DNA from: Nitrospirota bacterium | Lineage (GTDB): Bacteria > Nitrospirota > UBA9217 | Length of the DNA stretch: 64,000 bases | Assembly: GCA_021814615.1 (NCBI GenBank) | Contig: JAKAHZ010000003.1 | Coordinates: 6,615 to 70,614 of the forward strand | Direction: 5' to 3' | Shown here: in pieces, positions 3,026 to 55,642 of the stretch | Position numbering within the stretch: position 1 is the first letter of the stretch | Layout: each line of letters begins with the position of its first letter | Notes under the pieces: generated by a model | Databases searched by the model: none | The model's input: only the letters and a program-made list of their open reading frames with translations | Told to the model about the DNA's origin: nothing | Translations under genes and position numbers: made by a program

Positions 3026-5842
3026 ATGAAGATGTTTAAAACGTTGATCCTTGTGATGGCTATACTCGCGGTTGTGTGCAGCGCGGCGGTTGCTGCTCCC
3101 TACCGGCTGGCATCCATCACCGACAGCATCATGAATCCGGTGCGCGTTGCCGTCGACTCCCAGGGGAACATGTATGTAACGAACGACGGCAAGGTGGTCA
3201 AGTACAATAACAAGTGGCAGATGGTAAGTTCCTTTGCCGTGACCGAGCCGCTCGGTGTCGCAGTCGACGCTGCCGGAAATATTTACGTCGGTTCCGGCAC
3301 CGCGGTAAACATCTACTCTCCTGCCTTTACGCTCATCGGCACTCTTGGCGCCGGCGCGGGTGAGTTCTCCAAGGCCAGCGACATCACCGTCGGCACGGAC
3401 GGACGGATTTACGTCGCCGACACGGAAAATCATTTTATCAAGGTCTATGACGGCACGACGAGGGCGAAGATCCTGTCAATCGGCGGGTATAGCAGTGTTG
3501 TCCCGACTCCTGCCGGAAAGCTGCGGCGGCCTTTTGGCGTTGCGGTGAATGATGCCACGAACGAGGTTTACGTTGTTGATTATCCGACCATTGTCATCAA
3601 CCTGGTGAATACCGACGGCGCCCGCATCTCGGTTTTCCATAAGGACGGCGTCTTCGACCGGTCCTACGGGACCTTCGGCTCCGGCGTCGGCCAGATCGCA
3701 TCGCCGATGGATATCGCCATCGACAACAGCGGCATTCTCTATGTGACAGACTCCTATCAACAGGTTTGTCACACCCTGAGCCCGGTCGATGGAACTCCCG
3801 TGGGGGCCGGCGGTCTTTACGATCCGAACATGCATCTCTATAATCCCATGGGCGTCGCCGTCGGAAAGAACGGCCTCGCCTACATAGTATCGAACAGGAG
3901 CACCGGCGGAAACGGTCGGGTCGATATTTATGCGCTCGACGGCTTCGTAACCATGTCGACCGCGCCGTCGGCGCTTTCCTTCCAGGCAACTCAGTACAGC
4001 ACAAACCCGGCTGCCCAGGATGTGACCATTACGAACAGCGGCAGCGGAACGGTGAGCTGGACGGCATCGGCGGATCAGCCCTGGATCCTCCTGAGCAAAG
4101 CATCCGGCACGGTGCTGCCGGCCGGTCAGGCGCCGTCGACGGATGTGCTGTCCGTCGGTGCGGACATTTCGAACCTCATTCCCGGCGCGTATTCGGGTTC
4201 GGTCACCATTGATTCCGGTTTCGGCCAGAAAGATACTATTTCCGTGACGCTCTCGGTCGTTCCTGCGCCGACGCTCGTGACGAACGGCACGATGAATCTT
4301 TCGACAACAAAGGGTAACAGCCCGGCAGCGCAGCCGGTCACGATCAGCGCCACCAACGTGATCTCGCCGCTGACGTGGAGCGCCTCGCCGAATGTCGCTT
4401 GGCTTGCGATCTCGCCAGCGTCGGCGGTGATTAATCCCGCATCTCCGAGTTCCTCGGCAATGATGTCAGTGAACGCAACGGGGATGGCGGTCGGTTCGTA
4501 CAGCGGCGTGATCACCATTACCGCTCCCGGAGCGCTGACGAGCGCTAATATTACGGTGAACCTGCGGATCGATGCGTCCTCGAAGATCACGGTCACGACG
4601 AATTCAGCCGACGCCCGGTTTACGGTCAACAGCGCGGGTGCGTCGTATAGCGGCTCCGGCCTCGCCTGGAGCGTGGAGAATGCTCCTGCCGGTGACTACA
4701 CGGTAATGTTCGACGCAGTCTCCGGTTTCAAGCGGCCCGTTTCTCAGACCATGACGCTTGCCGACGGCGGACAGCTTGCCTTCTCCGGCAACTATGTGTC
4801 TTACCTCGATCTGGCTGCGAAGAAGAATATTGTCGCCGCGAAGGGGCCTGACGCATCCAATGATTCGCTGGTTCGCGTCTTCAACCGGAATAGCGGCACC
4901 TTGATCGCATTTGACCTCGTTGCGCTTGCCTCTCAGTATGGAGCAAACGTTGCTGTGGGCGATATCGACGGTGACGGATCTGCCGAGCTCGTCGTCGGCA
5001 CGGGCGGCGGCCAGGGCAACGCTGCAACGGTCCGTGTTTTCCGGACCGACAAGACGCCGGTCCTCGAATTTACACCCTTCGCGTCACAGAACGGCGTCCA
5101 GGTTGCAGTCGCTGACCTGAACGGCGACGGCAAAGCAGAAATCATCGTTGCATCGGCTGGCGGTGCCGATGTTGGAACCGTTGCCGTGTATACCTATGAC
5201 TCGGCAACCCAGGCCATGGTGCCGACGGGGATTTCCTTTGCCGGGTTCAGCAATGGCACGAATGTGGCCGTGGCGGATACTGAAGGCGACGGCAGGCCGG
5301 AGATCGTCGTGGCTCCCGGGTTCAGCAAACAGAACGCAGGCACTGTCCGCATCTGGAAGTCCGATGTCTCCGGTTCGGTGGGCAGCTGGACTGCAGTCAT
5401 GGTGAAGGAGATGACCCTGTCCGATTCCTATGGCGCGACAGTCTCCGCTGGTGATGTCGATAACGACGGGAAGGATGAGATCATCATCGGAACGGGTGGA
5501 GCTTCGGGATCTAAGGCGACGATCTCGATCATGAAAGCGGATGGTACTCAGGTCGCCAAGTTCAAGGCTTTCGACAAATACGGCGTGAACATCGCTGCGG
5601 CCGACCTTGATGGCGACGGCAGCGTCGAGATCGTTGCGGCTCAAGGTATGGATTCCGGTGAGCAGAATACCCCGGGTAATACAAAGCTGAAGGGCAAGTC
5701 GCCGGTAACCGGCGCGGCGCCGGACCGCGGTTTGGTGCGGGTGTTCAGCGCTTCGGGCGAACAGAAGTTCTCGTTCACGGCCTTCGATAATGCATCTTCG
5801 CAATTCGGCGTCAATCTGGCGGTCGGTGATCTTGGTCTGTAA
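3026..5842 (+). CDS. Secreted multidomain protein: NHL-repeat beta-propeller + 2 BACON-like Ig domains + PEGA-like domain + FG-GAP/VCBS beta-propeller
   Basis: Signal peptide MKMFKTLILVMAILAVVCSAAVA. NHL-type repeats (GVAVDAAGNIYV, DITVGTDGRIYVAD, GVAVNDATNEVYVVD, DIAIDNSGILYVTD, GVAVGKNGLAYIV). SWTASADQPWILLS and LTWSASPNVAWLAIS blocks. FG-GAP blades GDIDGDGSAELVVG, ADLNGDGKAEIIV, ADTEGDGRPEIVV, GDVDNDGKDEIIIG, ADLDGDGSVEIVA. GGAGG RBS 8 nt before ATG 3026. Confidence 0.9.
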   Translation: MKMFKTLILVMAILAVVCSAAVAAPYRLASITDSIMNPVRVAVDSQGNMYVTNDGKVVKYNNKWQMVSSFAVTEPLGVAVDAAGNIYVGSGTAVNIYSPAFTLIGTLGAGAGEFSKASDITVGTDGRIYVADTENHFIKVYDGTTRAKILSIGGYSSVVPTPAGKLRRPFGVAVNDATNEVYVVDYPTIVINLVNTDGARISVFHKDGVFDRSYGTFGSGVGQIASPMDIAIDNSGILYVTDSYQQVCHTLSPVDGTPVGAGGLYDPNMHLYNPMGVAVGKNGLAYIVSNRSTGGNGRVDIYALDGFVTMSTAPSALSFQATQYSTNPAAQDVTITNSGSGTVSWTASADQPWILLSKASGTVLPAGQAPSTDVLSVGADISNLIPGAYSGSVTIDSGFGQKDTISVTLSVVPAPTLVTNGTMNLSTTKGNSPAAQPVTISATNVISPLTWSASPNVAWLAISPASAVINPASPSSSAMMSVNATGMAVGSYSGVITITAPGALTSANITVNLRIDASSKITVTTNSADARFTVNSAGASYSGSGLAWSVENAPAGDYTVMFDAVSGFKRPVSQTMTLADGGQLAFSGNYVSYLDLAAKKNIVAAKGPDASNDSLVRVFNRNSGTLIAFDLVALASQYGANVAVGDIDGDGSAELVVGTGGGQGNAATVRVFRTDKTPVLEFTPFASQNGVQVAVADLNGDGKAEIIVASAGGADVGTVAVYTYDSATQAMVPTGISFAGFSNGTNVAVADTEGDGRPEIVVAPGFSKQNAGTVRIWKSDVSGSVGSWTAVMVKEMTLSDSYGATVSAGDVDNDGKDEIIIGTGGASGSKATISIMKADGTQVAKFKAFDKYGVNIAAADLDGDGSVEIVAAQGMDSGEQNTPGNTKLKGKSPVTGAAPDRGLVRVFSASGEQKFSFTAFDNASSQFGVNLAVGDLGL

Positions 5843-11460: not shown

Positions 11461-12132
11461 ATGGAGACAGGGTACGTTTTTGCTTTCACCACCGGCCTTG
11501 CCGGCGGGTTCGGCCACTGCATCGGCATGTGCGGGCCGCTCGCGGCGTCTTTTTCCGTTCAGGGGAAACGCTCGCCCCCTTCTGTCGTGATCGGCAGGCA
11601 GCTCCTGTATCATGCGGGCCGCGTAACCACCTATGCCCTGATCGGCGCTGTCATGGGATACGCCGGCTCCTTCGTGAATGTCGCGGGAAGTCTCATGGGC
11701 GTCCAGAACAGCGTCATGATCCTTGCTGGGGTGCTGATGGTCGCCATGGGACTCGGCATCGCCGGCCTGATCGGCGGCACGGCCTGGATCGAGCGTCACA
11801 ACGCAGGCGTGCTCGGGGCGGCAAGACGCGTGATAGCGCATCCCTCCGGCCTGCGCAACTTTCCTCTCGGACTGTTGATGGGCCTGCTGCCCTGCGGTTT
11901 GTCCTATACATCCTTCATCGCTGCTGCCGGGACAGGCTCTCCGGTTTCCGGCATGATGTTGATGCTCGCCTTCGGCTGCGGCACCGTGCCCGCGCTCGCG
12001 GCCTTCGGCGCTGCTGCGGGGTATGTCGGATCTCGGCTGCGGGGCAGGGTTCAGCAGGCGGGAGGCCTGCTCGTCCTTGCCATGGGTTTGTACTACATCG
12101 TGAAGGGAATCAGGCTGTATGCCGAAATGTGA
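11461..12132 (+). CDS. Polytopic membrane protein, DsbD_2 / TauE-SafE-like (HCxGMCGP motif)
   Basis: GGFGHCIGMCGPL near the N-terminus and about six TM helices. Overlaps the ATPase start by 14 nt. Confidence 0.75.
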   Translation: METGYVFAFTTGLAGGFGHCIGMCGPLAASFSVQGKRSPPSVVIGRQLLYHAGRVTTYALIGAVMGYAGSFVNVAGSLMGVQNSVMILAGVLMVAMGLGIAGLIGGTAWIERHNAGVLGAARRVIAHPSGLRNFPLGLLMGLLPCGLSYTSFIAAAGTGSPVSGMMLMLAFGCGTVPALAAFGAAAGYVGSRLRGRVQQAGGLLVLAMGLYYIVKGIRLYAEM

Positions 12133-14665
12133 CCACTGCCTGATCGAATTTCCCGAGCGCGATGCGGTGCATGACGAGATCAGGGGCGAGGCGCGGGTTT
12201 TCTGCTGCCATGGGTGCCAGGGCGTCTATCGGCTCATCCACGATGAAGGGCTCGATGATTTCTACCGCAAGCGCGCAGGCTGGCTGCCGGGACCGGTCTT
12301 GGAACAGACGATCGATCTCGCGGCATTCACCGGCAGCGTCCGGACCGTGGAAAAGGAACTTTGCGAGACGGATATCATGCTCGATGGCATTCGTTGCGCA
12401 TCCTGCGTCTGGCTGAACGAAAAGGTCCTGGAACGTACGCCGGGCATTTTCTATGCCCGCGTCAACTATGCAACCCACCGCGCCCGCATCCGCTGGGATC
12501 CTGCGACCACGGGTCTGGCTGCAGTTCTCGGACGCATCACTTCCATCGGATACACACCCAAACCCTTTTCAGAACGCGCATACGAGGAGGAGCAGCGGAA
12601 GCTCAGCCGTGACCTCCTGATCCGATTCGGCACCGCCGCTTTTTTCTCCATGCAGCTCATGCTTTTCTCCGCGGCGCTTTATGCCGGCTACTTCCAGGGC
12701 ATCGATCCGGCCCTCAGGAGCCAGTTCCAGTGGATCTCGCTGGCCATGACCACGCCGGTGCTCTTCTATTCCGGTTGGCCGTTCTTCGCCTCGGCTCTGC
12801 GGGGACTGCGCCACGGCGCTTTCACCATGGACGTGCTGATCGTGGCCGGGGCAGGGTCCGCCTACATCTACAGCATGTTCCAGATGGCTGCCGGCGGCGA
12901 GGTCTATTTCGATACGTCGGCCATGATCGTCACCCTCATCCTCCTGGGCCGATATATCGAATCAGGAGCGAAGCGCAAGGCATCGGAGTCGTTGACGCGT
13001 CTGTTGTCGCTCTCGCCGCCCGGGGCAAGGCTGCTCGAGGCGGGTCCGGACGGCAGCATCGCTGCCGCGCATCGGCGTATGACGACGATCGGATCGGTCA
13101 AGCCCGGCGACCTGGTCGAGATCCTTCCCGGAGAGCAGGTGCCGCTTGACGGCATTGTTGCCGACGGCGCATCGGAAGTGGACGAGTCGATGCTGACGGG
13201 AGAATCGCTGCCGGTGCAAAAGACGCCGGGGGCGGAGGTCTTCGGCGGCACGAGAAACCTCATGGGCAGGATTGTGTTCGAAGTGACGAGGACGGGAGAC
13301 GAGACCGTTCTCTCCCGTATCGTTCGAGCGGTCGAGGATGCCCAGGCGCGTCGCGCGCCGGTCCAGGCGGCAGCGGACCGGTTCGTCGGATTGTTTGTCC
13401 CGCTTCTGATCCTGTCCGCTGTCGCCACGGCCGGTTTCTGGCTCTTCCGGGGGAGCGGGTTGTCGGCTGCCGTGATGCATGCCGTCTCGGTGCTCGTCAT
13501 TGCATGCCCCTGCGCCCTGGGCCTGGCAACGCCGCTCGCAATCCTTGTCGGCACCACCTACGGCGTAAGCCGCGGGATCCTGATCAAAGGCGGCGATGTG
13601 ATTGAACGGGCGAAGGATATCGACACGGTTGTCTTCGACAAGACCGGCACGATCACCGAAGGAAGGCCGCTGCTCGTGTATGCTCGCGGGATCGGGATCG
13701 ATGACGCGCGGGCGATACGCCTTGCCGCGTCGCTGGAACGATATTCGGAGCATACCATCGGCAAGGCGATTGTCGAAGGGGCAAAGAGTGAAGAACTCTT
13801 TGCGGTGCAGGATTTCAGCGCAGCGCCGGGAGCGGGCGTTCGGGGAATCGTCGAGGGGAGCATGGTAAAAGTAGGGACGAGGGAATTCGTAAAGATTGGA
13901 CGGGGAGAGGAATACGGACAAGGGGACAAAGAGACCCGGCGCCAAGGGGAAAAAGACAGACGCGGAGACACGGAGACGCGGGAATACCGAGTGCAAGACG
14001 GACAAGGCGACAATGCGACCAAGGGACAAGGCGAGAAGGGTCAAGAACTAGAAGGCCTCAGGGAAGGGGAACGGGCCGGAACGACGGTTGTCTATCTGTC
14101 GATGGACGGGATGCTTGCCGGCGTTTTCGGCATCTCCGATCCTGCAAGGCAGGATGCATCGGGAGTCGTGAAAACGCTGGAATCCACCGGGATGCATATC
14201 GCGATGATCACGGGCGATGCGCAGGGAACGGCGGAAGCGGTGGCCGAAAGGGTCGGCATAACTTCGGTTATGGGCAGGCGGACACCGGTGGAGAAGGCGG
14301 AAGAACTTCAGGCGCTTCGTTCCCGAGGCAGGCATACGATCATGGTTGGCGACGGGATCAATGATGCGCCTGCGCTGATCGAAGCCGACGTGGGCATTGC
14401 CGTCGGCAAGGCGACGGATATTGCCCTTGAGAGCGCCGACATCGTTTTGCTCAGAAACGACTTGCGCCTCGTGCCGCTCAGCATTGCCCTGGCAAAGAAG
14501 ACCTATGCGGTGATCCGGCAGAACCTCTTCTGGGCATTTTTCTATAACATTGTCGCTATCCCGCTGGCCGTGACGGGCGTTCTCCATCCCATTGTGGCGG
14601 CCGGCGCCATGGCACTGAGTTCGCTCAGCGTGGTAGGCAATTCACTCCGGGCGAGGGTGAAGTAA
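12119..14665 (+). CDS. Heavy-metal (Cu-type) P1B ATPase, FixI/CcoI-like, with a low-complexity insertion
   Basis: N-terminal CDHC...CCHGCQGVYRL metal-binding domain, TGES, CPC (IACPCALGLATP), DKTGTITEG, MITGDAQGTA, GDGINDAPAL. Confidence 0.9.
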   Translation: MPKCDHCLIEFPERDAVHDEIRGEARVFCCHGCQGVYRLIHDEGLDDFYRKRAGWLPGPVLEQTIDLAAFTGSVRTVEKELCETDIMLDGIRCASCVWLNEKVLERTPGIFYARVNYATHRARIRWDPATTGLAAVLGRITSIGYTPKPFSERAYEEEQRKLSRDLLIRFGTAAFFSMQLMLFSAALYAGYFQGIDPALRSQFQWISLAMTTPVLFYSGWPFFASALRGLRHGAFTMDVLIVAGAGSAYIYSMFQMAAGGEVYFDTSAMIVTLILLGRYIESGAKRKASESLTRLLSLSPPGARLLEAGPDGSIAAAHRRMTTIGSVKPGDLVEILPGEQVPLDGIVADGASEVDESMLTGESLPVQKTPGAEVFGGTRNLMGRIVFEVTRTGDETVLSRIVRAVEDAQARRAPVQAAADRFVGLFVPLLILSAVATAGFWLFRGSGLSAAVMHAVSVLVIACPCALGLATPLAILVGTTYGVSRGILIKGGDVIERAKDIDTVVFDKTGTITEGRPLLVYARGIGIDDARAIRLAASLERYSEHTIGKAIVEGAKSEELFAVQDFSAAPGAGVRGIVEGSMVKVGTREFVKIGRGEEYGQGDKETRRQGEKDRRGDTETREYRVQDGQGDNATKGQGEKGQELEGLREGERAGTTVVYLSMDGMLAGVFGISDPARQDASGVVKTLESTGMHIAMITGDAQGTAEAVAERVGITSVMGRRTPVEKAEELQALRSRGRHTIMVGDGINDAPALIEADVGIAVGKATDIALESADIVLLRNDLRLVPLSIALAKKTYAVIRQNLFWAFFYNIVAIPLAVTGVLHPIVAAGAMALSSLSVVGNSLRARVK
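13901..14080. repeat. Intergenic-type word repeat embedded in frame in the ATPase CDS
   Basis: ACGGACAAGGGGACA (13914-13928) is identical to 16224-16238. CAAGGGGAAAAAGACA (13943-13958) matches CAAGGGGAAAAGACA (16245-16259). AGACGCGGAG (13958-13967) matches GACGCGGAG (16272-16280). Translates to GRGEEYGQGDKETRRQGEKDRRGDTETREYRVQDGQGDNATKGQGEKGQELEGLREGERAG. Confidence 0.55.
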
Positions 14666-26137: not shown

Positions 26138-26411
26138 GGTCAGCCCTCCTGGAACAAGTATACCAGCGATCAGTTGCGGAATCCTGAACCGGGGAACTGC
26201 GAAGGGGAGATGGACCCCCAAAAGCCTCTCACAGGAATATCACCGCAAAGGCGCGAAGTGCGCGAAGGAGTTCGAAAAGGATGGGTAACGAAAAAGAAGA
26301 TGATGAGACGGACACGATCCGATAAACGCAGAAGGATGATCCGGCGGCCTTCGCTGGAACGTCGGGGAAATTCAATTGACCGCTTCCCGCAAAAAGACTT
26401 ATCATTTCCTC

Positions 26412-28127
26412 ATGCATGCGTGGTTCGGAAAAATGCTGTTCGTCGACCTCTCTTCGCGAAGGATCGAAACACGAAAAATATCATCCGAAGTGCTGGAAGC
26501 CTGGCTCGGCGGGAGAGGGCTGGGCGTGCATCTCATGCGCGAGACGATCGGCTTCGATGCCTTTGACGAGCGCATGCTGATGCTTTTTTCCGTGGGACCG
26601 CTCTGCGGCACCGCCGCGCCCACGTCCTCGCGCCTTTCCGTGGTTTCCCGCTCCCCGCTGACCGGCACGATCTTCGACTCCTCGGTGGGCGGACATTTTC
26701 CGTTCAAACTGAAGCAGGCGGGATACGATGCGGTGGCGATCGCGGGCAGGGCAGCGAGTCCCGTGTATATCGAGATCATCGAGGACCGCGTCACGATCCG
26801 CGATGCGGCGGCGCTCCGGGGCAAGGGAACGGGCGAGGTGAACCGGATCCTGGAGAAGGACGGGCTTGTCGCCTGCATCGGCCCGGCAGGCGAGAACCGG
26901 GCGCGGATGGCGAATATCATGATCGGCGGGGCGAACTGCGTGGGCAGGGGCGGCATGGGCGCGGTGATGGGCGCGAAGAACCTGAAGGCCATCGTGGTGA
27001 ACGGCTCGAAGAAGCCCTCCCTTGCGGATCCCGCCTTGTTCAAGAAGGCTCATGACGATGTGATGCGGCTGCTCCGCGCATCGCCGGTGGTAATGGGCGA
27101 GCTGGGCCTCGCCGAGTTCGGCACCGGCGCCCTCGTGGACATCATGGAAGAGCGTCGCATGGCGCCGACGGAGAATTTCCGCAAGACCGTTTTCTCCGGC
27201 GCCCAGGCCTACTCCGGTCCCGCGATCAGGAAGCGCTACGGATCGAGGAAGGAAGGCTGCGCGGTCTGCCCCATCCAGTGCAAGAAGGTCACGTCCTGCG
27301 GCAGGCCGATCCCGGAATACGAGACGCTCTCCCATTTCGGCGGCCTGAACGCGAACGATGACGTTGAATCGATCATCAAGGCCAATCTCCTCTGCAACAC
27401 CCTGGGACTCGACACCATCTCCACCGCAGCGACCATCGCGGCTTACGGCGAGGCGCGCGGAGCGTTCCTCTCCGGCGACGCCATCCTGGACATGATCGCC
27501 AGGATCAGCAGGCGGGAGGGGGAAGGCGATGCGCTTGCCGAAGGATCGAAGCGGTACTGCGCATCAATCGGAAAGCCGGAGCTCTCGATGAGCGTCAAGG
27601 GGCTGGAGATCCCGGCCTATGACCCCCGCGGATCCTACGGCATGGCGCTTGCCTACGCAACGTCGAACCGCGGCGCCTGCCATTTGCGCGCCTATCCCAT
27701 CAGCCAGGAGATCCTGCGAAAACCCGTGGCAACGGACCGGTTCAGCTTCGACGGCAAGGCACGGCTGATCAAGATCTGCGAGGACACGAACGCAGTGGTT
27801 GATTCGCTCTCGGTCTGCAAGTTCGCCTTCCTCGGCGCGTCGGTGGAGGAATATGCCCAGATGCTTGCAGGCGCCTCGGGCGTTCCCTTCACCGGCCAGG
27901 GCCTGCTCAAGACCGGTGAGCGGATCGTGGACCGCGAACGCGAGTACAACGGGCTGAACGGATTTACGGATGATGACGACCTTCTTCCTGCCCGATTCTT
28001 CACTGATGACGGTTCATCGGGCGAAGGCATCGAGATCACAAAAATCGACAAAGATCGGTTTCGGGAAGAATTGGAGAGGTATCATAGAATAAGAAGCGGC
28101 GAACATGCTGGCAAGCCTGCAGGCTGA
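26412..28127 (+). CDS. aor: Aldehyde:ferredoxin oxidoreductase (tungstopterin AOR family)
   Basis: N-terminus GKMLFVDLSSRRIE...LGGRGLG, the cluster Cys region CAVCPIQC, and SNRGACHLRAY. Confidence 0.9.
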   Translation: MHAWFGKMLFVDLSSRRIETRKISSEVLEAWLGGRGLGVHLMRETIGFDAFDERMLMLFSVGPLCGTAAPTSSRLSVVSRSPLTGTIFDSSVGGHFPFKLKQAGYDAVAIAGRAASPVYIEIIEDRVTIRDAAALRGKGTGEVNRILEKDGLVACIGPAGENRARMANIMIGGANCVGRGGMGAVMGAKNLKAIVVNGSKKPSLADPALFKKAHDDVMRLLRASPVVMGELGLAEFGTGALVDIMEERRMAPTENFRKTVFSGAQAYSGPAIRKRYGSRKEGCAVCPIQCKKVTSCGRPIPEYETLSHFGGLNANDDVESIIKANLLCNTLGLDTISTAATIAAYGEARGAFLSGDAILDMIARISRREGEGDALAEGSKRYCASIGKPELSMSVKGLEIPAYDPRGSYGMALAYATSNRGACHLRAYPISQEILRKPVATDRFSFDGKARLIKICEDTNAVVDSLSVCKFAFLGASVEEYAQMLAGASGVPFTGQGLLKTGERIVDREREYNGLNGFTDDDDLLPARFFTDDGSSGEGIEITKIDKDRFREELERYHRIRSGEHAGKPAG

Positions 28128-28198
28128 CAAGCCGATCGGAGGACAAGCCTCCAGGCTGGCCGGCCCGCAGCGGGAGCGCGAAGGGGAAGGAGGAGGCC

Positions 28199-28639
28199 AT
28201 GAAACGTGCTGATCTCGTTGTTGACCGGTTCCTCGAAGGATTCTCGTGCGCGCAGGCCCTGCTGTCCGTGTACGGCGAGGGGGCAGGACTGGAGCGTGAC
28301 ACGGCGCTTCGTGTTGCCGGGGCCCTCGGCGGCGGCATGGCCCAGACCGGCGGGACCTGTGGCGCCGTGACCGGCGGCCTCCTGGTCATCGGCCTTGCGC
28401 ACGGCAAGGTGCGGCCCGATGACGCCGCCGCGAAGGAGCTCACCTACGGGCTGGCGCAGGAGTTCATGGACCTTTTCAAGAAGCGGAACGGCACGCTCGT
28501 CTGCCGCGAGCTTCTGGGCTGCGATGTCAGCACGCCGGAAGGACGAACGTTGGTAGCGGATCAGAAATTATACACCACGCGCTGTCCGCGCTTCGTCATC
28601 GATGCCGCAGAAATCCTGGAGGACCTGCTGCGCCGGTGA
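28199..28639 (+). CDS. C_GCAxxG_C_C family redox protein
   Basis: FSCAQALL and GGTCGAVTGG motifs plus C-terminal Cys residues. Confidence 0.85.
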   Translation: MKRADLVVDRFLEGFSCAQALLSVYGEGAGLERDTALRVAGALGGGMAQTGGTCGAVTGGLLVIGLAHGKVRPDDAAAKELTYGLAQEFMDLFKKRNGTLVCRELLGCDVSTPEGRTLVADQKLYTTRCPRFVIDAAEILEDLLRR

Positions 28640-34051: not shown

Positions 34052-34660
34052 TCAGCCGAGAGCCTCTGCGGCGACCTTCTCCAGGGAAATGCCGTACCGG
34101 CTTTCGATGTGGTCAAAGAGGGCGCGAACCCGGCGGTGAGACCGGTCCACGGTAGCGAGGAATAAGGGATTATGGGGATAGCGCCTGGCGAGGGAGGCGA
34201 AGCGCGCGTCGATGGTCGTGGGCCGGTCGAGCTCCACCACGCTGTCGATCACGGGAATCATCCGCTCTTCGAGCGTGCGGGGAAGGAAGTCCCGGTCCGG
34301 AAGGCCGAATTGCAGGGCTTCCCGGCGCGAAAGGCCGCACTGAATGTGGCAGACGCAGACGAACGCTTCCCGGTGATGGCCGAGGGAGGACAGGAACCGG
34401 AAACCCTCCACGCCATGCAGGACGGGATCCTGGGTCTTGTGCCTGCCGATGTCATGCACCAGCGCGGCCACGCGCAGGAATTCCCGATCCACGGGGCTGC
34501 GATCAGCCAGCAGCTCGCCGGCCCGTTCGGCAACCCGCGCGGCGGCGCGGCAATGGCGTGTCCACAGCGCATCGCCGCCAAGGCGGTCAACAAGCGCGAG
34601 CGCTGCGGGGAAGGAGAGGCCCGTGCCGGGATGCTCTTCTTGAAGGAGCGGATTGTTCAT
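34052..34660 (-). CDS. HD-domain metal-dependent phosphohydrolase
   Basis: H...HDIGRH motif. Confidence 0.8.
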   Translation of the reverse strand: MNNPLLQEEHPGTGLSFPAALALVDRLGGDALWTRHCRAAARVAERAGELLADRSPVDREFLRVAALVHDIGRHKTQDPVLHGVEGFRFLSSLGHHREAFVCVCHIQCGLSRREALQFGLPDRDFLPRTLEERMIPVIDSVVELDRPTTIDARFASLARRYPHNPLFLATVDRSHRRVRALFDHIESRYGISLEKVAAEALG

Positions 34661-34759
34661 TCTGTGACGTCAGCTTACCATATACATTGCCGGCGGGGCA
34701 ATGCTATAATCCGACCGTGTTATAATCTGGGCAAGGCCTTGCACACGAAAGGATCTCCC

Positions 34760-36169
34760 ATGAAAGATTACGATGTCATCATCATCGGCTCCGGCGCAGG
34801 AGCGAACCTGATCGGCGACGTGCTGGAACACAACCGCACGCTTGCCCTTGTCGACAAGGGACCCGCGGGCGGCACCTGCCTGAACACGGGCTGAATTCCC
34901 ACGAAGCTCTTGGTCTATCCGGCGGATAGACTGATGGAGATCCGGGAGGCGGGCAAGTTCGGCATAACCGCCGAGATCGGGAAGATCGATTTCCGGGCGA
35001 TCATGGAGCATATGGCAGCCCACGTGCGGAAGAGCCACGACCCCATGCAGAAGGCGCTCGACGAAGCCGAGGATTTCGATTACTACGGTGGCGAGGCCCA
35101 GTTCACGGGAGAGTCCGTTCTGTCCGTGAAGGGGCAGGAGATCCGGGGGAAGACGATCATCATCGCCGCCGGCGCCCGGCCCCTGGTCCCGCAGGTGAAG
35201 GGCATCGAGACCGTCGAATACCTGACCAACGAAAGCGCGCTCCGTTTGACCGCGCTGCCGGAGAGCATGGTCATTATCGGCGGCGGGTATATCGCCGTGG
35301 AGTTCGCCCATTTCTTCGAAGCCATGGGCACGAAGGTGACGATCGTGCAGCGCAACAAGCAACTCGTTCCCGAGGAGGAACCGGAGGTGGCGGAGCTCCT
35401 GAAAAAAGCGCTGTCCCGGCGCATGAAGGTCTATACGGATACCGAGGCGGTGGAAGTGAAACAGAGCGGCCCGGTCGTGACCGTCACGGCAAGGGAGCGA
35501 TCGGGCGGCAAGCAGATCGAGATCACGGCGGGCCGCCTGCTGCTCGCCGCCGGCAGGAGGCCGAACTCCGACAACCTCATGGTCGAGCGGGCGGGCATCA
35601 AGACCGACGCGAAGGGGTTCATCGTGGTCGACGAGTTCTACGAAACATCGAAGAAGAATATCTGGGCCTTCGGCGACATTATCGGCAAGAAGATGTTCCG
35701 GCATACGGCGAATCACGAGGCCGAGCTGGTGTTCCACAACGTCACGCACGGAAAGAAGTCGCGAATGAACTATCTCACCGTGCCGCATGCGGTCTTCTCC
35801 TGGCCCGAGATCGCCTCCGTGGGCCTCACCGAAGCCGAGGCGGTCAAGATCATGGGCAAGGACGAGGTCATGGTCGGCAAGGCGCAGTACACCGACGTGG
35901 CCCGCGGGGAGGCCATGCGCGAGACCGAGGGCTTCGCCAAAGCCGTGGTGCACAGGAAGACAGGCAAGGTGCTGGGGTACCACATCATCGGGCCGCAGGC
36001 GTCGGTCCTGATCCAGGAAGTGGTGAATGCCATGGCCAACGACGGGAACCTCTGGTCAGTCGCCAAGGGCATCCACATCCATCCTGCGCTGTCCGAGGTT
36101 GTGCTGAAGGCCTTCGGCAAGCTTCGGCCTGTGGGAGAAGAGAAGGAACATCACCACCATCATCACTGA
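34760..36169 (+). CDS. Class-I pyridine nucleotide-disulfide oxidoreductase (Lpd/MerA/GR-like), candidate selenoprotein with in-frame UGA at 34892-34894
   Basis: One frame throughout: DVIIIGSGAGA...GGTCLNTG-[TGA]-IPTKLL, a second Rossmann fold MVIIGGGYIAVEFAHFF, the HIHPALSE dyad, and a C-terminal HHHHHH. Confidence 0.7.
34913..34931 (+). promoter_or_regulatory. Candidate bacterial SECIS apical hairpin
   Basis: GTCTATCC-GGC-GGATAGAC, a perfect 8-bp stem starting 18 nt after the UGA, with a G-rich loop about 29 nt from the UGA. Confidence 0.45.
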
Positions 36170-47604: not shown

Positions 47605-48813
47605 ATGGGTATGATCGTCATCGAACCATTCCGGGGCAGCCCGGTGACGGAGCAGCGAATCGAGATCGTCGAACGAAAGGGCACGGGCCATCCGGATTAT
47701 CTCTGTGATTCCCTTATGGAAGCGGTCTCGGTGGAGCTCTGCCGCAGATATCGCGCGGCCTTCGGCGCGATCCTGCACCATAACATCGACAAGGGGCTGC
47801 TGGCTGCCGGCAGGGTGGAAAAGCGTTTCGGAGGCGGGCGGGTGACCGTTCCCATGGAACTCACCATTGGCGACCGGGCCACCTTCCGGCTGGGGAAACG
47901 GATGATCCCGGTGGCAGCAATCGCCGTGGACAGCGCAAAGGCATGGATCGCGAAGCACCTGCGTTTCGTGGATCCCCGGCGCCACGTGAAATACCGCGTC
48001 GTGCTCGCCGAGGGGTCAGAGGAACTGACGGACATCTTCGCCAGGCCGGGTGCGGTGCACGGCGCGAACGACACCTCGGCCGCCGTGGGCTATTACCCTT
48101 TGAGCCCTACGGACGCGGCTGTCCTGGGTCTGGAGCGGTGGCTCAATTCCCCGGCCTTTAAACGGCGTTTTCCCGAGACCGGCGAGGATGTGAAAGTCAT
48201 GGGCCTTCGCAACGGCAGCGATCTGGAGCTCACTGTCGCCATGCCCCTGCTCTGCCGGTTCGTCCGATCCGAGGAGGAGTATTTCGACCGAAAGCGAGTG
48301 GTGCAGGGCGCCCTGGATACCTTTGGCGCGAAGCTCGCCTCCTTCCGCTCCGTGAACCTACAGTTCAATACGCTCGATGTGCCGGGCCGGGGCATGCATG
48401 GCGTGTACCTGAGCCTGCTCGGCACGTCGGCCGAGGACGCCGATTCGGGCCAGGTGGGCAGGGGCAACCGGGTGAACGGCCTGATCTCGCTCAACCGGCC
48501 CATGGGCACCGAGGCTGCCGCGGGAAAGAATCCGGTGAGCCACGTGGGCAAGATCTACAACGTGCTGGCGCATCTGGCTGCCAGGAAAATCTACGAGCGC
48601 GTCGGGGGGCTGCGCGAGGTCCAGGTGCTGTTCTTGAGCAGGATCGGGACGCCGATCAGCGAACCGCAGGTGGCCACGGCCCAGGTCCTGCCGCTGAAGG
48701 GGAAGCTATCGCCGTCCCAGAGCCGGGCTGCTGAGCGCATTCTGGCCGCCGAGCTGAAGGGCATTGCCGGCTTTTGCGGGAGACTGAGCAGGGGATTCTA
48801 TCCGGTCTGTTGA
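47605..48813 (+). CDS. Archaeal-type S-adenosylmethionine synthetase (MAT, PF01941-like)
   Basis: IEIVERKGTGHPDYLCDSLMEAVS, HHNIDKGLL, GANDTSAAVGYYPLS, DADSGQVGRGNRVNGLI and GKNPVSHVGKIYN blocks. Confidence 0.85.
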   Translation: MGMIVIEPFRGSPVTEQRIEIVERKGTGHPDYLCDSLMEAVSVELCRRYRAAFGAILHHNIDKGLLAAGRVEKRFGGGRVTVPMELTIGDRATFRLGKRMIPVAAIAVDSAKAWIAKHLRFVDPRRHVKYRVVLAEGSEELTDIFARPGAVHGANDTSAAVGYYPLSPTDAAVLGLERWLNSPAFKRRFPETGEDVKVMGLRNGSDLELTVAMPLLCRFVRSEEEYFDRKRVVQGALDTFGAKLASFRSVNLQFNTLDVPGRGMHGVYLSLLGTSAEDADSGQVGRGNRVNGLISLNRPMGTEAAAGKNPVSHVGKIYNVLAHLAARKIYERVGGLREVQVLFLSRIGTPISEPQVATAQVLPLKGKLSPSQSRAAERILAAELKGIAGFCGRLSRGFYPVC

Positions 48814-55449: not shown

Positions 55450-55491
55450 ACGGCCGGACCGTCGAAGTGTTCTCTTCGGCAGCCCGGCCGT
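55450..55491 (-). terminator. Hairpin terminator downstream of the 55643-55978 gene
   Basis: ACGGCCGG...CCGGCCGT long hairpin with flanking T/A runs. Confidence 0.45.
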
Positions 55492-55642
55492 CTTTTTCCC
55501 TGCTTGCAAAGACCCGAAGCTTTCCGCCCCCTCCTCGCGAAGGGTTTGGTCTTTCGGTGAACGCTTCTGTTAGTTCGAAGCTATCACCGGCTTCCGGAGA
55601 TGTCAAGCGCCTCTCTGTTCGCGGCCTGGAATCGCGTGCAGG

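Follow-up and report, generated by a model that had tools for sequence, protein, structure and literature searches.

Probable selenocysteine next to the flavin in the redox centre of a class I disulfide reductase family from Nitrospirota

The 64,000-nucleotide stretch of a Nitrospirota bacterium contig analyzed here (JAKAHZ010000003.1, positions 6,615 to 70,614; hereafter the window) carries on its plus strand, at 34760-36169, a gene for a flavoprotein disulfide reductase whose frame is broken by a single in-frame UGA codon (34892-34894). Comparison with related sequences makes it very likely that this UGA is decoded as selenocysteine (Sec), and that the gene encodes a selenoprotein. The decoding mechanism itself would be the ordinary bacterial one. 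What appears to be new is the location of Sec, at the flavin-proximal position of the redox centre in a class I disulfide reductase, and the fact that the family is uncatalogued and systematically mis-annotated. With clearly less confidence, we lean towards regarding the gene as the founding example of an uncatalogued class I selenoprotein family with a CxxxxU motif, the change having been fixed at the same site both in NF004947-like proteins (Nitrospirota) and in NF004992-like proteins.

An original prediction for this DNA had described a frame uninterrupted save for one TGA after 44 codons, and re-reading and translation of the window confirmed this. The 44 sense codons upstream of the TGA read MKDYDVIIIGSGAGANLIGDVLEHNRTLALVDKGPAGGTCLNTG; 424 sense codons follow it (one fewer than the 425 first counted), and the frame ends at a TGA stop at 36167-36169. 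The codons after the UGA start with IPTKLLVYPADR and finish with EEKEHHHHHH. The UGA, the sole interruption of the 469-residue open reading frame (ORF), falls on the second Cys of the GGTC-LNTG-[C]-IPTK block. In the CxxxxC motif of class I enzymes (glutathione reductase, lipoamide dehydrogenase and the like), the leading Cys acts as interchange thiol and the trailing one, close to the flavin, as charge-transfer thiol. The UGA had been assigned to the latter, and it indeed aligned exactly with a Cys in all 119 full-length homologues (119/119; 69-79% identity, mostly from Nitrospirota metagenome-assembled genomes, MAGs) and in the mycothione reductase structure 8qcj, whose segment GGTCLNVGCIPTK is in register with GGTCLNTG[U]IPTK. 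The guess that the family might be deltaproteobacterial did not hold: every named close homologue came from Nitrospirota MAGs.

The codon recurs in related genes. A pattern scan of 185,579 species-representative genomes for GGNGGNWSNTGYNTNAAYNNNGGN-TGA-RTNCCNWSNAAR, in which TGA was required at the site, returned 34 loci: 25 belong to this family, eight to a second family described below, and one (L012) looks like a pseudogene. Titles of 23 of the 25 loci name Nitrospirota/Nitrospirae and relatives. The frame after the TGA was open in 33 of the 34 loci; in 30 of them it ran for 408-446 more codons to a stop, and in three it was open to the end of the contig. Among metagenome relatives with a readable motif (n = 75), 24 had TGA and 51 had TGC or TGT at the site. 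The original prediction had called for an alignment with Cys- and UGA-containing orthologues; this alignment comprised 37 distinct sequences that conserve the TGA, mostly from Nitrospirota and reaching down to 47% amino-acid identity, and 49 distinct Cys forms.

A perfect 8-bp hairpin, GTCTATCC-GGC-GGATAGAC, had been described at 34913-34931, 18 nt past the TGA. It was found exactly there, and an extra G-U pair extends it to 34912-34932; the element overlaps the codons for V52-Y-P-A-D-R57. In its core, TCTATCC-GGC-GGATAGA, positions 34914-34920 pair with 34924-34930 and leave an apical GGC loop at 34921-34923. The stem of the window sequence is thus 9 bp long (the 7-bp core plus two extra pairs), and lies inside a longer structure predicted by RNAfold. 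The helix and its pairing were compared over the 37 distinct Sec and 49 distinct Cys sequences, and codons were counted over 47 Sec loci. The 7-bp helix was intact in 35 of the 37 Sec forms versus none of the 49 Cys forms. When only those Cys forms that encode the identical xYPADR peptide were considered, the helix was intact in 0 of 22. In the Sec forms 98.5% of the cells of the helix were paired, versus 55.7% in the Cys forms, and sliding the 3′ partners by 1-3 columns in the Sec forms lowered the pairing to 29-57%.

The peptide [VI]-Y-P-A-D-R at codons +7 to +12 is encoded by both Sec and Cys forms, but the choice of codons differs sharply. In the Sec forms Tyr was encoded by TAT in 47/47 loci, Pro by CCG in 47/47, Ala by GCG in 43/47, Asp by GAT in 46/47 and Arg by AGR in 47/47. 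The Cys forms, in contrast, used TAT or TAC for Tyr, all four codons for Pro and for Ala, GAC or GAT for Asp, and six codons for Arg. Codon entropy at +7 to +11 was 0-0.2 bits in the Sec forms and 0.9-2.0 bits in the Cys forms, and the codons flanking the hairpin showed normal variation in both sets alike. The closing base pair, at alignment columns 23/39, was UA in 28 sequences, UG in six and CG in three; the CG cases (L015, L020 and L034) carry a compensatory change from GUC..AGA to GCC..AGG. Below the hairpin, a further helix between 34907-34910 and 34936-34939 (CUCU/GGAG) had 66% of its cells paired, with some compensatory changes (AU 8, CG 7); this element (34907-34939) is tentatively proposed as a lower helix of a selenocysteine insertion sequence (SECIS).

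These features were compared with the published model of the bacterial SECIS (bSECIS), which has a loop of 3-9 nt, an upper stem of 4-16 bp, a minimum free energy (MFE) no higher than -7.5 kcal/mol, a G in loop position 1 or 2, usually followed by G or U, and 16-37 nt between the UGA and the loop (PMC13188914 Fig. 2A). The element of the window has a 3-nt GGC loop on a 7-9-bp stem, and the loop reads 5′-GGC-3′, with an invariant GG at alignment columns 30-31. The UGA and the apical loop are 26 nt apart (34895-34920), and the MFE of the 23-nt hairpin is -11.8 kcal/mol. The mean hairpin MFE was -8.1 in the Sec forms and -3.0 in the Cys forms. The suggestion that the geometry of this hairpin fits a bacterial SECIS is therefore borne out, both by the published constraints and by a synonymous conservation that is seen only together with the UGA.

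Several observations weigh against Sec decoding. Neither the 64-kb window nor the ∼120 loci fetched yielded selA, selB, selD or a gene for tRNA-Sec: ARAGORN detected no tRNA-Sec in the window and 34 loci, and in tblastn searches of the window and all loci with Escherichia coli SelA, SelB and SelD only the EF-Tu-like domain of BipA was matched. Just past the right end of the window lie ammonium transporter and P-II genes, and no sel genes. A screen for TGA-interrupted ORFs made no other selenoprotein gene evident in the window; it gave 109 candidates in this GC-rich sequence, and the top ten proved to be either neighbouring genes that share a frame or spurious antisense ORFs. The fold of a 75-nt segment of the window was not significant when compared with shuffled sequences (z = -1.5; 17 of 200 shuffles folded as well), so the case for the hairpin rests on comparison with other sequences. 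There, covariation contributes little signal, as the helix hardly varies, and two Sec forms depart from the consensus, L009 with a 6-bp stem and a 5-nt CGGGA loop, and L018 with a shifted alternative hairpin. Finally, no SECIS family was matched in Rfam by gathering and permissive searches over 34860-34990, a result that was expected and is uninformative, given the poor coverage of bacterial SECIS elements in that database.

With no sel genes in the sequence searched, support for the use of Sec comes at the lineage level only. The Sec-type MccSep family has been reported chiefly from Desulfobacterota and Nitrospirota, and a Sec-type member from Nitrospirota has been shown together with its SECIS (PMC13510729); in Nitrospirae selC is reported to lie embedded in selB (PMC13188914). 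The same absence lends some weight to a reading in which the UGA is read through without Sec, either by hairpin-stimulated near-cognate or suppressor decoding (with insertion of, e.g., Cys or Trp) or because UGA was reassigned in the lineage. Stable hairpins 3′ of stop codons can promote readthrough in other systems. Yet genuine stops in the window are most often TGA, which terminates 24 of the 45 long ORFs, including this gene, and this indicates that the codon has not been reassigned. Furthermore, the hairpin has the specific bSECIS geometry and a G-first apical loop, and the recoded site coincides with a redox Cys, the classic position of Sec/Cys exchange. The family has also undergone at least six Sec/Cys switches (see below), as is known for selenoprotein families, and Sec-type selenoproteins do occur in Nitrospirota (PMC13510729). 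We consider readthrough without Sec unlikely, and decoding as Sec remains the preferred explanation.

The public annotations suggest still another outcome, namely that there are two products: a 44-residue peptide terminated at the UGA, and a protein of 411-419 residues whose translation starts anew at a Met further downstream. Exactly such truncated proteins are called in the databases: of the 184 homologues retrieved, 65 lack the N-terminal part and are called as proteins of 376-419 residues (399-419 with a single exception), under the names dihydrolipoyl dehydrogenase, mycothione reductase or FAD-dependent oxidoreductase (FAD, flavin adenine dinucleotide). Most of them begin with MEIRE, and none contains a U or a CxxxxC motif. 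The FAD-binding GxGxxG lies upstream of the UGA and is hence lost from these calls, so that the truncated form would be devoid of both the FAD-binding motif and the entire CxxxxC centre. Among 39 distinct complete Sec-form proteins, with identities to the window protein as low as 47%, the median dN/dS was 0.16 for the 43 codons 5′ of the UGA and 0.15 for the region 3′ of it (dS >1), which points to the same coding constraint on both sides of the codon. In addition, the internal Met is not preceded by a ribosome-binding site. The 640 bp upstream of the reductase gene carry an HD-domain ORF on the minus strand (34052-34660; PF01966, E 7e-8), and the 240-residue plus-strand ORF (34172-34894) that public gene calls place there, overlapping the HD-domain gene and ending at the Sec UGA, looks like an artefact of the unrecognised selenocysteine codon. 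We conclude that a pair of separate products is very improbable.

Could the gene be a pseudogene, in which a nonsense mutation turned the TGY codon of a Cys-type reductase into TGA and the rest of the frame has yet to decay? The highest-scoring full-length database homologues all carry Cys at the site, and one locus genuinely has this appearance: in L012, from an archaeal MAG (Nitrososphaeraceae), the same-site TGA (3751-3753) is followed by a second stop 39 codons later and by no hairpin. This locus, probably a pseudogene or an error, served as negative control. The original prediction had argued against decay of the window gene, and the comparison sustains that view. Thirty-seven distinct orthologues that diverge to 47% identity have retained the TGA, and a dS >1 with dN/dS ∼0.15 on both sides reveals purifying selection over the whole frame; 33 of the 34 genome hits are open downstream; the TGA forms are not one clonal sequence; and only these forms keep the hairpin fixed at its synonymous positions. 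There is hardly any room left for a decaying gene. That a sequencing or assembly error turned TGC or TGT into TGA is scarcely credible: nothing specific speaks for it beyond the fact that the sources are metagenome assemblies, the TGA and the hairpin are identical in 6/6 independently assembled contigs (the truncated product P0001 of the window is on record for eight contigs; among the six read, ENA assemblies, NCBI MAGs and Logan assemblies, the latter from different SRA runs, account for two each, and they span different assemblers and samples), and dozens of diverged orthologues from unrelated studies carry the TGA as well.

In neighbour-joining trees the Sec and Cys forms were interleaved. 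Fitch parsimony required at least six Sec/Cys switches, with a median of 12 over 100 bootstrap trees, and left the root state ambiguous. Nearly all Sec forms, including a deep 'GU-VPSK' subclade at 47% identity, share the same hairpin, from which we infer a single origin of Sec followed by repeated Sec-to-Cys replacement. Such replacement has been described for other bacterial selenoproteins (PMC13510729). A caveat is that the YPADR peptide is pre-adapted to encode this palindrome, so that convergence may have played a part. The presence of the BipA gene downstream in both Sec and Cys loci supports their orthology. Sample names associated with the family refer to groundwater, fractured rock, wetland and soil metagenomes. 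The five members of the GU-VPSK subclade (L007, L008, L022, L028 and L039) have an identical SECIS hairpin; in L007, L028 and L039 the catalytic His of HPxxxE is replaced by Phe (MHAFPTLxE), and L008 and L022 end at a contig edge. The MAG SMAG_U7979 holds both a GU-VPSK paralogue (L022) and a gene of the main type (L024).

The second family recovered by the genome scan makes up eight of the 34 hits (L013, L014, L016, L017, L023, L026, L029 and L030). It is a separate class I family with the signature FGGTCVNTG-U-IPTK-x-LVASA, in which the UGA occupies the same second-Cys position. The sources are MAGs of SAR324 (two), Binatia (two), Syntrophobacteraceae, Acidobacteria and Planctomycetota (one each), and one unclassified bacterium. 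These proteins scored 767 bits with NF004992, 'FAD-containing oxidoreductase' (cut-off 629). All eight ORFs are intact (456-459 residues), and a GC-rich hairpin follows the UGA in each member; RNAalifold gave no positionally conserved consensus hairpin for this family. These results suggest that the same Cys-to-Sec replacement was fixed in two branches of the superfamily.

To assign the window protein to an enzyme class, profile searches were run with U replaced by C. In Pfam the protein matched PF07992 (Pyr_redox_2; residues 4-320, E 1.2e-54), PF00070 (Pyr_redox; E 2e-17) and PF02852 (Pyr_redox_dim; residues 341-450, E 4.6e-29). By these domain matches it is a complete class I pyridine-nucleotide disulfide oxidoreductase of the glutathione reductase/lipoamide dehydrogenase/MerA group. 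The HPxxxE dyad of the class is present as H441-PALS-E446, and the CxxxxC feature reads C40-LNTG-U45, which is complete only if the UGA is decoded as Sec. The nearest solved structures are the mycothione reductases 8qcj, 9lc9 and 8rx5, of which 8qcj aligned from end to end (E 6.6e-87); with such matches (E 1e-87) the fold and the register of the motifs are already fixed. The top NCBIfam model, NF004947 ('dihydrolipoyl dehydrogenase', PRK06292.2-5), was narrowly missed, with 590.4 bits versus a cut-off of 592. Scores were also below cut-off for TIGR01350, dihydrolipoyl dehydrogenase (359.4 versus 408.8), and for the mycothione reductase models NF005884 (423.6 versus 501) and TIGR03452 (387.7 versus 635.65), and the MerA and glutathione reductase models scored well under theirs.

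An identity as mycothione reductase is not supported, as both curated equivalog cut-offs were missed. An identity as dihydrolipoyl dehydrogenase (E3) is likewise not supported: the equivalog cut-offs were missed, and there is no association with E1/E2 or Gcv genes. In the window no E1/E2 or glycine-cleavage genes lie near the reductase gene, and the family gene has a canonical Lpd paralogue beside it in 9-15 related loci, which suggests that the two enzymes differ in role. This paralogue, a Cys-Cys enzyme (MxxKLTIIGAGPGGYVAA...), is encoded on the opposite strand in L010, L027, L035, L053, L057, L061, L064, L075 and L092. The lack of E1/E2/Gcv neighbours and the separate Lpd paralogue nearby render the 'dihydrolipoyl dehydrogenase' annotation doubtful, and the substrate is probably not lipoamide within a 2-oxoacid dehydrogenase complex. 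A preference for NADPH is suggested by the sequence VQRNK (35345-35359), which, on comparison with mycothione reductase, resembles the Arg-containing NADPH site of the GR/Mtr type (glutathione and mycothione reductases).

The gene product is predicted to be a homodimeric, FAD-dependent and NAD(P)H-linked class I disulfide reductase. The hairpin at 34912-34932, acting as SECIS, would recruit SelB·GTP·Sec-tRNA(Sec) to the ribosome, and the UGA would be read as Sec45 and not as a stop. A Cys40-Sec45 selenenylsulfide beside the flavin would then replace the usual Cys-Cys disulfide. In the proposed cycle FAD would be reduced by NAD(P)H, and the reduced flavin would attack the proximal selenium via a C4a adduct or charge-transfer state, with opening of the Se-S bond. 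Cys40 would subsequently attack the substrate disulfide, or another electrophile containing sulfur or selenium, and the mixed intermediate would be resolved by the Sec45 selenolate, aided by His441′ and Glu446′ as acid and base. Sec would serve as the flavin-proximal nucleophile and leaving group. The decoding steps are modelled on the canonical bacterial pathway, and the catalytic steps on the mechanism of glutathione reductase and lipoamide dehydrogenase; it is by this analogy that we infer a SelB-dependent insertion of Sec and a role of Sec45 as the charge-transfer residue.

The remaining features of the gene were mapped on the plus strand. A tentative promoter-like sequence, found by consensus scan only, consists of TATACA, an 18-nt spacer and TG-TATAAT (TGnTATAAT), and lies at 34681-34710, ∼50 nt 5′ of the ATG; the same scan gave a second TATAAT at 34721-34726. 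A ribosome-binding site, AAAGGA, was read at 34748-34753, 6 nt 5′ of the ATG at 34760. The coding sequence (34760-36169; 469 residues and stop, assigned by its domain matches to a Sec-containing class I flavoprotein disulfide reductase) has its FAD-binding GxGxxG (GSGAGA, residues 10-15) at 34787-34804, and Cys40 (TGC), the first Cys of CxxxxC and, by sequence and alignment to 8qcj, the interchange thiol, at 34877-34879. Sec45 at the position of the charge-transfer Cys (34892-34894) is assigned from the alignments and the conserved TGA. Translation and alignment located the NAD(P)H-binding Rossmann motif GGGYIAVE at 35279-35302, and HPALSE, with the His441/Glu446 acid-base dyad of the dimer interface, at 36080-36097; the motifs MVIIGGGYIAVEF and HIHPALSE of the original prediction were both found in the translation. 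A natural C-terminal His6 tail is encoded at 36149-36166. A C-terminal run of four to six His (mostly five or six) is shared by one subclade that mixes Sec and Cys forms; besides the window protein its members are the Sec forms L031, L036, L043, L046, L047 and L078 and the Cys forms L044, L045 and L050. This run may constitute a metal-binding tail, which recalls the C-terminal metal-binding cysteines of MerA.

The neighbours of the reductase gene in the window encode an aldehyde:ferredoxin oxidoreductase, a C_GCAxxG_C_C protein, HtrA, an aldolase II, an unknown 498-residue protein, PAP2 and BipA. Clustering of neighbouring ORFs over ∼100 loci recovered only BipA, HtrA, an unknown upstream protein, a putative outer-membrane protein and the canonical Lpd paralogue. 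This clustering, which was swamped by spurious antisense ORFs, brought up no partner of the thioredoxin, peroxiredoxin or sulfur-carrier kind. The aldehyde:ferredoxin oxidoreductase gene and the C_GCAxxG_C_C gene (28199-28639) follow each other at ∼26376-28639 on the plus strand, and the latter has no internal stop; the C_GCAxxG_C_C family has Sec-containing members elsewhere (2026 catalogue, PMC13188914). Elsewhere in the window a c-di-GMP-I-GGC riboswitch aptamer (RF03167) was detected on the minus strand at 55474-55559 (61.8 bits versus a gathering threshold of 59, E 3.6e-12). Judged by eye, the plus-strand region at ∼47605-48813 encodes an archaeal-type S-adenosylmethionine synthetase-like protein (…GTGHPDYLCDSLMEA…), followed by a small secreted cupredoxin-like ORF, and the translation of 12119-14665 (plus strand) resembles a heavy-metal P-type ATPase.

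The mechanism of flavoprotein disulfide reductases rests on a thiolate-flavin charge-transfer pair. If Sec45 is confirmed, a natural selenolate version would allow a direct test of the effect of selenium beside the flavin, and would for the first time open a flavin/selenolate charge-transfer pair to study in a natural system. An FAD-adjacent selenenylsulfide would give a reactivity that Cys-Cys enzymes do not have, for which a faster flavin-to-chalcogen electron transfer, resistance to over-oxidation, and activity on polysulfide, selenium or metal(loid) substrates are candidates. The use of Sec in the superfamily would extend beyond the C-terminal tail of animal thioredoxin reductase (TrxR), and the family would mark Nitrospirota of groundwater, wetland and subsurface as selenium users, in which the repeated Sec/Cys switching could relate to selenium availability. 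At least 65 database entries are mis-called as truncated proteins without FAD site and redox centre, and selenoproteome catalogues and selenoprotein predictors currently miss the family. The original prediction had asked whether the family is already catalogued. Table 1 of the 2026 catalogue of 119 prokaryotic selenoprotein families (PMC13188914) lists no class I flavoprotein disulfide reductase and no CxxxxU motif, and includes neither of the two families. The main texts of BSepDB (111 families, PMC13326102) and deep-Sep (PMC12013277) mention no such enzyme, and a full-text literature search combining selenocysteine or selenoprotein with the names of class I disulfide reductases returned nothing relevant.

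Among known systems, the closest are the Cys-type Nitrospirota orthologues (NF004947/PRK06292.2-5; 'mycothione reductase' in JGI), which are 69-79% identical over the full length and have the same domain order. They share GGTCLNxGCIPTK...YPADR, HIHPALSE, BipA downstream in many loci and, in one subclade, the His tail. They differ in having TGC or TGT for TGA, in the absence of the hairpin (0/49) and in YPADR codons that are free to vary. Mycothione reductases (8qcj, 9lc9 and 8rx5) have the same class I fold, with the CxxxxC motif, the Arg of the NADPH site and HPxxxE in register, but are actinobacterial enzymes with a Cys-Cys centre; mycothiol is not expected in Nitrospirota. As in other bacterial SECIS elements (the Zhang and Gladyshev model, with E. 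coli fdhF as prototype), the stem-loop of the window lies within the coding sequence just 3′ of the UGA and has a small G-first loop; it differs from them in a family-specific sequence, encoded by [VI]-Y-P-A-D-R, that is unusually invariant and without an Rfam match. A bacterial flavoprotein with two dinucleotide-binding domains, a bSECIS and a Sec predicted beside FAD has been listed (PMC13188914 Table 1), but it belongs to another subfamily and has a single redox Cys/Sec and no CxxxxC centre. The window protein gave only 84.9 bits with TIGR03385 (cut-off 578.8). The high-Mr TrxR and TGR of animals are likewise class I selenoproteins, distantly related to the window protein (TIGR01438, 174 bits). 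Animal TrxR uses a Cys-Sec selenenylsulfide, with the Sec in a mobile C-terminal GCUG tail and inserted by means of a eukaryotic 3′-UTR SECIS, and its flavin-proximal CVNVGC centre stays Cys-Cys. The window enzyme, in contrast, has no C-terminal redox tail, and its predicted Sec lies within the flavin-proximal centre itself.

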